Origin: Candidatus Latescibacterota bacterium
GTDB taxonomy: Bacteria > Latescibacterota > UBA2968
Length of the DNA: 64,000 bases
Assembly: GCA_965116885.1 (NCBI GenBank)
Contig: OZ220741.1
Coordinates: 4,032,001-4,096,000, forward strand
Reading direction: 5' to 3'
Shown: positions 41,085-50,629 of the stretch, piece after piece
How positions within the stretch are numbered: the first letter of the stretch is position 1
How the letters are laid out: every line of letters begins with the position of its first letter
The notes under the pieces: generated by a model
Seen by the model: only the letters and a program-made list of their open reading frames with translations
Database searches by the model: none
Told to the model about the DNA's origin: nothing
Position numbers and translations under genes: made by a program

Positions 41085-41609
41085 ATGCATCATTTCTATT
41101 TTGATGCCAGTGCTCTTGTCAAGCGTTACACCCAGGAGACAGGGAGTGATAAAGTCAATTTCCTTTTTGATAACATTCCTTTAGATCGTTTGATGTGCTC
41201 TGTTCTCGGTGCTGTGGAAGTGTTTTGGGTCTTTGTCAGAAAAAAGAACGACAAACGAATTATGGTGCCGGATTTCGCTCAGGCAGTCGTCCATTTGAAC
41301 CGTGAGGTTATCGCAGAGGATTCAGATTTTACTGCTATTCTCATCCATAAGTCAGTCATTTGGGCCTCGATGGATTTGATTGAAACTCATTCGCTCAATA
41401 GTGTTGATAGCATTGTATTGCGTTCAGCATTAGAGGTCGCAACACTCCTTCGCAAAGCGGGCGATGAACTGGTACTTGTCGCATCTGACCAACGCCTGCT
41501 TCGAGCGGCACAGGCTGAAGGGATATTGGTTTTTAATCCTGAAATCGACTCGCAAGAGGCTTTGGAAGTTTGGGTTTTCGACACTTCAGGAAGGGACGAT
41601 GACTGCTGA
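41085..41609 (+). CDS. vapC: PIN-domain toxin (VapC family)
   Basis: FYFDASALVKRY..E.GS, E, LNSVDSIVL, VASDQRLLRAA..EG. Confidence 0.88.
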   Translation: MHHFYFDASALVKRYTQETGSDKVNFLFDNIPLDRLMCSVLGAVEVFWVFVRKKNDKRIMVPDFAQAVVHLNREVIAEDSDFTAILIHKSVIWASMDLIETHSLNSVDSIVLRSALEVATLLRKAGDELVLVASDQRLLRAAQAEGILVFNPEIDSQEALEVWVFDTSGRDDDC

Positions 41610-41645
41610 TTGCTGAGAGCCATTCATGCAAACTGGATGTGTATA
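41600..41645 (+). repeat. Direct repeat, left copy (duplicated cobA 5' end)
   Basis: TGACTGCTGATTGCTGAGAGCCATTCATGCAAACTGGATGTGTATA; 41/46 identical to 50584-50629; reads MQTGCV* from 41626. Confidence 0.9.
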
Positions 41646-41668
41646 GAACTCCTCTACAGGAGGGTGTG

Positions 41669-50000: not shown

Positions 50001-50255
50001 CAGGAGTGGGCAAACGCACTTGTGCGTATCACGCTCACAGGACCGGAGGGGGTGGCTACACTGGACAGAGACGGTACAGCGGCCTCGGTTCTTCTGCGGG
50101 ATTCGACCGGGGAGGTGCGGGGTCTCTTGCATGATTGGGCAGATAGTCTGCTAACACCAAGCGCCATTGCTGAAGCATTAGGGGATCCGAACATCAAGGG
50201 TTGGGATGTCCAGGTCAGCCGCGGTATCCCGGACGCGTCCTACTGGAAACGGTGA
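44022..50255 (+). CDS. Giant secreted multidomain protein: dockerin/EF-hand-like, 4 LRR blocks, YWTD beta-propeller, Ig-like domain, metzincin metallopeptidase
   Basis: GDFDNNGVVDVSDF/DMNSSGSIDVGDF; plant-type LxGxIPxxLGxL repeats; six GK(I/M)YW repeats; HELGHNMSLGH plus LMSY Met-turn; start uncertain (43998, 44022 after GGAGG, or 44232). Confidence 0.88.
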   Translation: MIHRPTPNLSATSDVDIIRINRPKFYKNSILLPFSIFSKSTSQLANPAALAFPTVSFLTDKFPFFSKFLLMLALALLVFAGQVSAQLLLTHVTDGAAGVVSGQGTLDGTVIPSSAEVSFNVLNALCPGDFDNNGVVDVSDFLLFIGVFGTSSGDATYNALMDMNSSGSIDVGDFLLFIALFGTTCEQTDPDRDALVALYNATNGPNWTNNTNWLSDKPLGEWLGVTTDANGRVTDLNLFNNGISGVLPSELGDLTRLETLWIGGNQLSGSLPSWLGDLTNLQNLQLASNNFSGSLPSWLGDLTNLQDLRLQYNQLSGSLPSSLGDLIRLQRLYLHGNDFSGELPSSLVNLTNLQQLLLDGTRLCVPTDATFQAWLQGIKNKSGVVDCGDGKIYWTDAWTGKIQRANLDGSGVEDLIMPGGAPFGLALDPGAGKMYWTGFELNKIQRANLDGSGVEYLVTLGEGAFGLALDPGAGKMYWTVSDKIQRANLDGGGVEDLVITRGTDNHPFGLALDPGAGKMYWIATEGGTIRCANLNGSGVEDLVTELGGPIGLALDPGAGKMYWTAIEGGKIQRANLDGSGVEDLITGIGGDVTYTMLALDSGAGKMYWPVVQGDKVSQKSNKIQRANLDGSGVEDFITGLVAPSGLALDFGNQGGDGGITPPPPSPDDREALVALYNATNGSGWTDKTNWLSDRPLGEWYGVTANAQDRVTELLLDYNNLTGVIPSELGGLASLEVLVISNNVNLTGVIPSELSSLSNLQSLILLGNHLSGSIPSELGGLTNLETLILSHNNLTGKIPAELGDLANLETLGLSHNNLTGAIPAKLGDLANLEILLLDNNNLAGTIPSELGSLSNLTGLFLEDNPHLSGPLPETLTALGKLQALDTTNTQLCIPADPAFMAWLQPIEAGGRLCVVRLAVSGGGQRAVPGTRLPQPVEVQAIGANSVPVGGATVVFSPGDGHGTADPDVATTNRYGIAQTFWTLGLEVGEQTLTATTTGDGRSVQVVATASDWMPLEALYNATDGANWTNSANWLSDRPIGEWYGVTTDDNGRVIRLNLFRNGVSGELPSELGDLTKLEWLGFYDNNLSGELPESLGNLTNLQVLDLALNRISGELPSWLGNLKNLKSLSLGGNLSGELPSWLGNLKNLKSLSLGNNLSGELPSWLGNLTQLRHLTLIGGLSGELPESLGNLKNLESLWIHSNQLSGVLPASLSKLTELEDLWLENTQLCAPTDAVFQAWLQGIKTKRGVVNCGYLDRSALVALYNATNGSGWTNSANWLSDRPLREWHGVTTDASGKVVRLSLEGNNLKGPIPPQLGNLANLTHLYLTDNNLTGPIPPQLGNLANLKVLSFQSNNLTGPIPPQLGRLANLQDLYLGDNQLTGRIPRDFTLLYNLRYLYLHGNALSELPSSAYSRFGQKLEVLHLHDNDFRGPFPSWLSSLTSLTYLTFPAQSPSRTCLPATSRFRGWVSNLHERSALAEAATPPYCGEGFWYTWRFEQTTTGRSWTGARPFAAHRIRGEPMLLRIFMGMQNNNYGSWAIQSPRMEVIFHEGIVIDSSEPTVEVPAGAIPLWATRDQAFLLDPSYRQSINILIPGHLVDRGDTESIKIHFDPDSTFRKIVGDRMPAIYHANDQLFVRDPFAPAPWVRHIEYRQHYDIMSGTRLPTKTGWFTQDMPPAKVYLMPLVKSKSDDRGMIRAVNDLVRKGPSHPFFWETQNLLPIKDITVHTGRGLWLGYHPTNSNKLAVLAALVLRLQFSKWDDEFDYIVGLFPGTDGIAHPGKRFSVVGYNGGSSYNTLAHELGHNMSLGHAPCGDPGYPNDGDYPWSDGSIGGLSIRGIDLGVESLRRNHVRAWDGEYVRSTDRPVLLDPDETEFIVDGDTPDLMSYCNKKTYPYKWISSYNFDKALNYRQPASKPATSAAPVNALVLSGGRKPDREMFFWPAFVGEARPKLPQGGGQYRIDAQDAQGRELFSFDFDMTEVADGEGASSFVFAVPVQQEWANALVRITLTGPEGVATLDRDGTAASVLLRDSTGEVRGLLHDWADSLLTPSAIAEALGDPNIKGWDVQVSRGIPDASYWKR

Positions 50256-50583
50256 GTTTGGACCTGCTCCGCTTGCTTCGGTGGAGAGTTTAGGGCTTAG
50301 GCTGTGGCGATGAGGTTGATGTGAGGAACAACTCGCTGAGTGCCACATCGATCAACACGCACATTTCAGCCCTTCAGAGGAGAGGGGTGGATGTGCGCTT
50401 TGGCGCGGGGAAGTCTGCGGTTGTTGATGAGCAAGAGCCGCTACCACCCCGAGGAAAGAGGGTACAATTCTCTCAGGCGGTGATATGAGGTTGAAAGACC
50501 AGCATCTTGCTTCATTACGCTATCTGTATTATCTTGAGATGTGATGCCGCAATGACGGCTTCTTAATACAGCATCTATTTTGC

Positions 50584-50629
50584 TGACCGCTGACTACTGA
50601 GAGCTATTCATGAAAACTGGATGTGTATA
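50584..50629 (+). repeat. Direct repeat, right copy, containing the functional cobA start
   Basis: TGACCGCTGACTACTGAGAGCTATTCATGAAAACTGGATGTGTATA. Confidence 0.9.

Follow-up and report, generated by a model that had tools for sequence, protein, structure and literature searches.

In the window studied here, a 64,000-nucleotide stretch of the genome of a Candidatus Latescibacterota bacterium (GenBank assembly GCA_965116885.1, contig OZ220741.1, positions 4,032,001 to 4,096,000), a 46-bp direct repeat duplicates the start of cobA/hemD (cobA below), whose product is a fused uroporphyrinogen-III C-methyltransferase/uroporphyrinogen-III synthase. The left copy of this repeat is very probably the fossil start of cobA carried by an insertion that also holds a defence-type island, and not the attachment-site (att) border of the 9-kb unit that separates it from the right copy. 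Relative to the common allele hemC-hep-cobA, in which a heparinase II/III-like gene (hep) lies between the hydroxymethylbilane synthase gene (hemC) and cobA, the genome carries two independent insertions. The complete statement, which adds a history of the hemC-cobA slot and an illegitimate join with homology on one side only, is the one we favour, with appreciable reserve. The elements concerned are listed in window coordinates (the window is G000:C1:4032001-4096000; G000 is a one-contig genome of 5.56 Mb, GC content 0.51):

41600-41645, + strand: left copy of the repeat, a dead stub made of a TGAnnnn spacer, the cobA 5' leader and cobA codons 1-6, then TAG
50584-50629, + strand: right copy, made of the native spacer, the leader and the first 20 nucleotides (nt) of the live cobA/hemD
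41646-41658, + strand: 13-nt junction GAACTCCTCTACA, absent from cobA and from the hemC-hep junction
37287-41658, + strand: insertion A (relative to hemC-hep-cobA), 4.37 kb, comprising the low-GC defence/toxin-antitoxin island, the spacer, cobA nt 1-20 and the 13-nt junction
43749-50596, + strand: insertion B (relative to hemC-hep-cobA), 6.85 kb, the leucine-rich repeat (LRR) module

The sequence-only reading had described the left copy as a dead stub and the right copy as the start of the intact gene, with 41 of 46 positions identical, and we reached the same description. The left copy reads ATG CAA ACT GGA TGT GTA TAG (MQTGCV*), and the right copy opens a 498-amino-acid (aa) open reading frame (ORF), MKTGCVYLVG..., with TP_methylase and HEM4 domains. 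The copies lie 8,984 bases apart (repeat family D16) and differ at positions 5, 11, 13, 22 and 30, with a longest exact run of 16 nt, and similarity is lost sharply beyond both ends. When the whole genome was scanned with up to nine substitutions allowed, the 46-nt repeat was present as these two copies only; under a binomial model, a match of 41/46 or better has a probability of 7e-20 per pair, with about 1e-6 pairs expected genome-wide. The first ~21 nt consist, however, of TGAnnnn heptamer units, a motif that occurs at 15 other loci, and cobA coding sequence is limited to the last 20 nt; this coding part (18/19 nt compared) is confined to the two copies.

A third, partial copy of the repeat (87% over 38 nt) stands before an unrelated gene at G000:C1:679026-679063. 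Together with the recurrent heptamers, it could suggest an error of assembly, or that heptamer-rich spacers match by chance; yet the cobA coding nucleotides match as well, the probability of such a match is of the order given above, identical contigs of two runs bridge both junctions, and the stub is common to the relatives G012 and G017. The likelihood of such an origin is practically negligible. Indeed, difference-free contigs from two runs of different studies span 39043-41697 and 47558-50625 (one of these two runs may be the genome's source), and the two relatives, assembled independently, share the stub junction, in agreement with the earlier argument against an assembly repeat.

The stub itself probably has no function. 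Its mini-ORF is retained in 3/3 carriers, as is the neutral-looking remainder, and the GTG start of hep lies 23 nt past the stub's stop codon, preceded by hep's own AGGAGG. An Rfam search of 36000-53000 with E up to 1 returned two chance-level matches only and no cobalamin riboswitch, and in a promoter/terminator scan at the repeats no candidate exceeded shuffle level.

Contigs (not raw reads) from four runs were placed, at 88% likeness, on the region 36500-52500. Most of the runs in which the stretch occurs are sponge metagenomes, and in X1 and X4 parts of it are without contig cover. The joints listed for contigs of co-resident relatives include 37286->41658, in X18, X19, X1 and a 10,983-bp contig of X4, and 43748->50597, in X18, X19 and X4, where one G separates the two sides. 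The edges of both joints are the edges of the hemC-hep-cobA allele, and the two stretches that they skip are insertions A and B. The left edge of insertion B is common to G007.

These data bear directly on the 9-kb cargo that the sequence-only reading had drawn between the two copies, namely a circular cassette of hep and the LRR gene, integrated by site-specific recombination at an att core over the cobA start and mobilised in trans. Direct repeats do flank 9 kb and restore the target gene, and hep seems to have been acquired horizontally. However, hep stands alone at this site, with no stub, in six relatives; hep and the LRR module are present or absent independently, the latter being a separate block bounded by the joint 43748->50597; and in G017 the stub persists without hep and with LRR-gene fragments only. 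Among the joints listed (15 of 79; contigs) none skips 8,984 bases, and the core is 89% identical, with its longest exact run at 16 nt. Empty and variant alleles do exist (hemC-12 nt-cobA in G002, G006 and G014; edges at 37286/41659 and 43748/50597), but their edges miss the repeat. As the earlier reading had itself noted, domain searches reveal no recombinase between the copies; none was found in any ORF of 37.4-52.1 kb, and the nearest PF00589 match is at least 300 kb off (the four in the genome lie at 1.06, 2.11, 4.39 and 4.41 Mb, the locus at 4.07-4.08 Mb; serine recombinases and transposases were not searched genome-wide). The 9 kb is not a single unit, the circular cassette is not supported, and we regard integration of such a cassette as highly improbable.

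The stub belongs instead to the DNA on its left and is no left border of a 9-kb cargo: G017 and G012 share both the PIN-domain gene and the stub after it with the window, at 95-98% identity. Relatives are one of the places where the sequence-only reading had proposed to look for the architecture; in the other genomes of the genus (21 in all) no stub was found. G017 matches the window over 40686-41138 (97.8%) and 41459-41654 (95.4%) and diverges afterwards, so that the matched part comprises the small ORF before PIN, an internally deleted PIN gene, the stub and 9 nt beyond. After the stub, G017 has unrelated sequence and LRR-gene fragments, with no hep. Its live cobA has a different leader, and the stub there therefore does not repeat the local cobA upstream region. 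In G012, hemA-hemC is followed by a decayed island and then by PIN with the stub and the 13-nt junction, and the contig ends in the first part of hep. The internal deletion of PIN in G017 (L038) has an AAGGAT microhomology at its left junction.

Comparison of G000 with G012 gives 806/846 identical positions for the toxin-antitoxin genes and 56/60 for the stub together with the junction, against 182/217 from 41659 on. Identity falls right after 41658, so that the right edge of the block is the same although the hep backgrounds of the two genomes have diverged. On the left, G014 and G032 carry elsewhere a 75% paralogue of the toxin-antitoxin pair, free of the stub, whose homology stops at window position 41576; the end of the PIN ORF is therefore borrowed spacer sequence, its final codons and stop falling among the heptamers of the left repeat. 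In spacer and leader the stub almost equals the G013 spacer between hep and cobA, CTGATTGCTGAGAGCTATTCATGCAAACTGGA, and its source was therefore a cobA start already preceded by sequence of the hep type.

The junction GAACTCCTCTACA occurs once in G000. In relatives it is found with one change in G012, identical in G005 and as its first 9 nt in G017. In G005 it stands before hep with an AAA_22 ATPase gene and unrelated DNA on its left. A candidate 'degenerate stub' upstream of the 13 nt in G005 was rejected, since its score was reached by 856/5000 local and 281/5000 end-anchored shuffles and is not significant.

Could the island itself be mobile, having left the cobA side imprecisely with the spacer and 20 nt and been re-inserted at the hemC/hep junction? 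Its presence or absence as a single piece (37287-41658), its low GC content of 0.407, and the shared right edge in the G000 and G012 hep backgrounds, with identity falling at 41658, would all fit. Yet the block has no recombinase or transposase, there is no second copy of the island in G000, and the 13-nt right end occurs also in G005 with other cargo. A flanking repeat or target duplication is not significant either: for 37260-37360 versus 41630-41700 the score was reached by 1118/2000 shuffles, and in G012 by 1232/2000. We consider this route rather improbable. A related proposal is that the slot is served by a targeted cassette mechanism with the recombinase acting in trans, the cobA-start stub being part of the recombination site. 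It draws on two observations, namely that the AAA_15 island (G000, G012) and the AAA_22 gene (G005) end in GAACTCCTCTACA at the same nucleotide before hep, and that the edges of 37287-41658 are identical in two diverged hep backgrounds; we hold it to be quite unlikely.

In a tree of rpoB, the carriers G000, G012 and G017 fall in a well-supported five-species clade together with G002 (empty slot) and G013 (hep only). The stub allele may thus be either ancestral in this clade and replaced in two species, or passed among species. An ancestral stub, which the sequence-only reading had named as grounds against itself, is borne out in part, in that the stub is common to three species. Block identity is 95-98%, and the flanks in G017 are at 93.5% (hemA), 91.1% (hemC) and about 90% (cobA), those in G012 at 89.4% and 84%. 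This comparison leans towards exchange, without being decisive, and the mosaic identity along the locus is an indirect sign of recombination with foreign DNA.

For the alleles of relatives, 20 kb of DNA upstream of cobA were fetched from 17 same-genus and three sister-family genomes, and genes and DNA were compared. In G002, G006 and G014, hemC lies directly before cobA, with 12 nt from stop to ATG; the two genes are within about 80-150 nt of each other in G016 and in the sister-family genomes G021, G023 and G027, and are separated by 0.6 kb and 1.1 kb in G010 and G001, respectively. The arrangement hemC-hep-cobA, with no stub and with the hemC stop overlapping the hep GTG, is that of G003, G004, G011 and G013, where a short TGA-heptamer spacer stands between hep and cobA. 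It recurs with no stub in G008, with an internal deletion in hep, and in G015, with hep reduced to a remnant. G007 has hemC-hep-LRR-type gene-cobA, and G005 has hemC-AAA_22 ATPase-hep-two small ORFs-cobA. In G009 four large genes precede cobA (three LRR-type and one sigma-54-type regulator), with hep 56 kb off, and G018 keeps cobA with the window's upstream genes not found within 18 kb. There are thus at least seven arrangements among the 17 same-genus loci that retain cobA. The hemC-cobA gap is therefore a hypervariable slot in this sponge-associated Latescibacterota genus, and its empty state exists. Judging from the relatives, hemA-hemC-cobA/hemD is evidently the ancestral order.

Decay of cargo in this slot is fast, with hep internally deleted in G008 (L040) and ~130 nt of it left in G015 (L034), and the ATPase gene of G012 (L060) is in pieces. 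The large dockerin/LRR/YWTD/FG-GAP genes just before cobA differ among G000, G007 (L032) and G009 (L033), and G017 (L038) has fragments of dockerin/LRR-type genes upstream of cobA. A stretch of ~60 nt (window ~50490-50545) downstream of these LRR-type genes is conserved in G000, G007, G009 and G017.

The product of hep is 88-93% identical to those of seven same-genus genomes. It is also 77-80% identical to that of genus g2 in family f2 (L024-L027), a sister family of the order, where the gene has a tRNA gene on one side and another gene on the other. In these f2 genomes cobA is about 51%, hemC 52-59% and hemA 61% identical. Since hep is far more similar to f2 than its housekeeping neighbours are, it seems to be imported, and the homology to f2 spans only ~13 nt before its start to ~20 nt after its stop. 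This pattern points to the acquisition of hep as a single gene by horizontal transfer between families.

The order of events and the mechanism that we infer would be as follows. First, hep would have been imported as a lone gene into the 12-nt gap between hemC and cobA. In one lineage, the defence island would have been placed directly before the cobA leader, trimming the 3' end of the PIN gene; an illegitimate join beside cobA would yield both the PIN stop within the spacer and the end of homology at 41576. An illegitimate join would then have linked the island allele, at cobA nt 20, to DNA just before the hep of another allele, while ordinary homologous recombination within hemC or cobA presumably resolved the other end, a case of homology-facilitated illegitimate recombination. 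Separately, the LRR module would have been added between hep and cobA. What a scar of this kind should look like is what the locus contains: the stub stops at cobA nt 20, unrelated sequence comes next, and an intact cobA runs from 50610. Parental alleles of the hep type are seen, as is the 13-nt junction before hep in G005; there, GAACTCCTCTACA and hep with other DNA on the left fit a parent allele that supplied the junction plus hep. About 8 nt of the junction (GGAGGGTG) can be assigned to either side, which is compatible with microhomology and proves nothing.

Several points weigh against this history. Among 21 genomes of the genus, none has the required parent, hemC-island-spacer-intact cobA, and PIN-spacer-cobA and spacer-cobA each gave 0 matches in JGI metagenome contigs (exact-match scans, which are weak evidence). 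No source was found for the 13-nt junction, and the data do not tell whether the island-side or the hep-side event came first. With 15 of 79 joints listed, a rare excision joint could be missed, and the rpoB tree is that of a single gene. The island identity of 95-98% among carriers is near the rpoB distance (~0.04 per site), so that vertical descent and horizontal spread are indistinguishable. Lastly, a duplication in situ would yield an identical end product.

Such a duplication would have arisen in tandem, head to tail, in a hemC-hep-cobA allele, from the hep ribosome-binding site to cobA nt 20, with the island later replacing the body of the first hep. The joint would give the order stub, junction, hep; the stub spacer is of the hep type; and the carriers all fall within one five-species rpoB clade. 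In addition, the last ~25 nt of hemC (to ~37295) still match the junction at which hemC and hep overlap in hep-bearing relatives, as far as the region of the hep start, and the local alignment score of 37260-37295 with the hemC-hep junction of G007 was reached by 0/2000 shuffles. Beyond the overlapping 21 nt, however, blastn-short and tblastx show no trace of a first hep in 37280-41660, and an almost exact replacement of hep by the island is demanded. The 13-nt junction with unrelated left DNA in G005 is left unexplained, and an allele with two hep copies is absent from 21 genomes. A tandem duplication is therefore unlikely in our judgement, if worth keeping in mind; of the sequence-only reading's other suggestion, the scar of a duplication, 'scar' holds in a loose sense.

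The genes of the locus are as follows:

35077-36375, + strand: hemA, glutamyl-tRNA reductase, conserved left flank (TIGR01035 4e-129)
36375-37304, + strand: hemC, hydroxymethylbilane synthase (TIGR00212 1e-106)
37493-39349, + strand: defence-type AAA_15/AAA_21 ATPase with a DUF3696 tail (Pfam AAA_15 5e-25, DUF3696 6e-7)
39380-40438, + strand: 352-aa ORF of the island
40756-41082, + strand: 108-aa ORF, putative antitoxin of the PIN pair, from its position alone
41085-41609, + strand: PIN-domain ORF (PF01850 2e-4, 22.4 bits, just below the cut-off of 23.6)
41669-43753, + strand: hep, heparinase II/III-like (ORF 41639-43753, likely start GTG 41669)
43998-50255, + strand: 2085-aa dockerin/LRR/YWTD-propeller protein with internal repeats (families D1-D13)
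50610-52106, + strand: cobA/hemD fusion, conserved right flank (TP_methylase 3e-56, HEM4 2e-59, TIGR01469 4e-89)

The flanks are well conserved, with hemA syntenic in 15/20 of the fetched loci and cobA/hemD present in 30/31 genomes. Between them, 37297-41599 is a low-GC stretch (0.407 versus 0.508 for the window). The ATPase of the island matches the PADLOC candidate-system models NsnB (6e-67), HEC-03B (2e-55) and PDC-M55A (2e-46). The 352-aa ORF has no match in Pfam, PADLOC, NCBIfam or PHROGs, and its Atlas neighbours are unnamed clusters; with the ATPase's partner unmatched, no complete known defence system was identified in the island. The 108-aa ORF has no family match in Pfam or NCBIfam, is separated from the PIN ORF by a 4-nt gap and shares 97% aa identity with its G017 counterpart.

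Of the cargo named by the sequence-only reading, both the lyase-like gene and the LRR gene are present, the former with Hepar_II_III_C (1e-22) and Hepar_II_III_N (2e-15) domains and the latter with LRR_14 (4e-53), LRR_8 (9e-52), Ldl_recept_b (4e-21) and Dockerin_1 (5e-5). Behind the 'protease' label of the LRR gene there is just one match, Peptidase_M66 at 19.0 bits, below the cut-off of 20.6. LRR-type 'eukaryotic-like' proteins are mentioned for metagenome-assembled genomes of sponge Latescibacterota in PMC12993501.

Though well resolved, the locus is a variable slot of an ordinary kind, set between core genes. Hotspots of defence islands and variable genes between conserved core genes are known in Pseudomonas and E. 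coli, and the present slot resembles them in its fixed flanks (hemC, cobA), its differing low-GC ATPase and toxin-antitoxin cargo and its emptiness in some species. It is unlike them in that large LRR 'eukaryotic-like' proteins and a polysaccharide lyase are also part of the cargo, and that the host is an uncultured sponge-associated Latescibacterota. With integron cassette arrays it shares promoterless single genes added serially at one site upstream of a fixed gene; unlike integrons, it has no intI and no attC-like repeats, and the 13-nt junction is unique in the genome. As in att islands at tRNA 3' ends, there are direct repeats of which one copy keeps the target gene whole, but here there is no integrase, the 5' end is concerned, and the repeat is not the border of a unit present in some genomes and missing from others.

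Homology-facilitated illegitimate recombination was proposed for orphan modules of Rhs, contact-dependent inhibition (CDI) and type VI secretion system (T6SS) effector-immunity loci (PMC5361080) and, according to PMC3240628, is documented experimentally in several bacteria. Like those orphan modules, the present locus shows a short piece of an anchor gene stranded by non-homologous DNA while the intact anchor persists, no recombinase, and alleles that vary among close relatives. In contrast to them, the 5' end of a biosynthetic housekeeping gene serves as the anchor, in place of a toxin gene's conserved core, just 20 coding nt are stranded, the mechanism is inferred, and the cargo consists of a lyase, LRR genes and a defence island instead of toxin tips.

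What looked like an att-bounded cassette thus becomes a worked example of successive insertions and allele mixing without a recombinase, in which a horizontally acquired lyase, defence genes and LRR 'eukaryotic-like' genes have come to fill a gap in a heme/siroheme operon of sponge symbionts. For the history of the slot, the stub provides a useful dated marker. A new mechanism would be at hand only if the shared 13-nt junction proved to be a recombination site.

The same stub architecture at other genes of G000 was sought in a scan of the genome for gene-start stubs. This returned 238 short nearby direct repeats, of which 24 passed a crude filter and 19 were inspected; most of those inspected were hairpin-type intergenic repeats, paralogue starts or tRNA-Pro copies. 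As only one or two loosely similar loci were found among those inspected (near 1.406-1.411 Mb), there is no recurrent mechanism. At G000:C1:1406579-1411300, two pairs of 66-99-nt direct repeats, 1.8-3 kb apart, are loosely stub-like, each spanning DNA before an ORF together with the ORF's first 12-37 nt. Short GC-rich hairpin repeats of several families (for example GTAGGGGCGACCCCCTGTGGTCGCCC and GGGACGGCCCCTGTGCCGTCCC) lie just before genes, in L003 (G000:C1:677526-680563) and at many intergenic sites, and such gene-upstream repeats give rise to many false 'gene-start duplications' in self-comparison.

The gene for tRNA-Pro(GGG) at G000:C1:1830345-1830421 has partial copies of its 3' end, with the downstream hairpin, at ~1833415-1833493 and ~1851267-1851340. 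Lying 3 kb and 21 kb away, these copies form a classic att-like duplication, unlike the cobA stub, with no PF00589 match nearby.

Tandem CTGAnnn heptamer arrays of at least three units (e.g. CTGACTA repeated at least 18 times) occur at 15 loci, namely at window 17586-17610, at G000:C1 ~4548720-4548856 (- strand) and at 13 others outside the window. Their form recalls the short tandemly repeated repetitive (STRR) heptamers of cyanobacteria. They often come after G-rich or hairpin repeats, and 10/15 end no more than 45 nt from where an ORF of 100 codons or more begins. Each heptamer unit shifts the TGA by one frame, so that an array stops all three frames.

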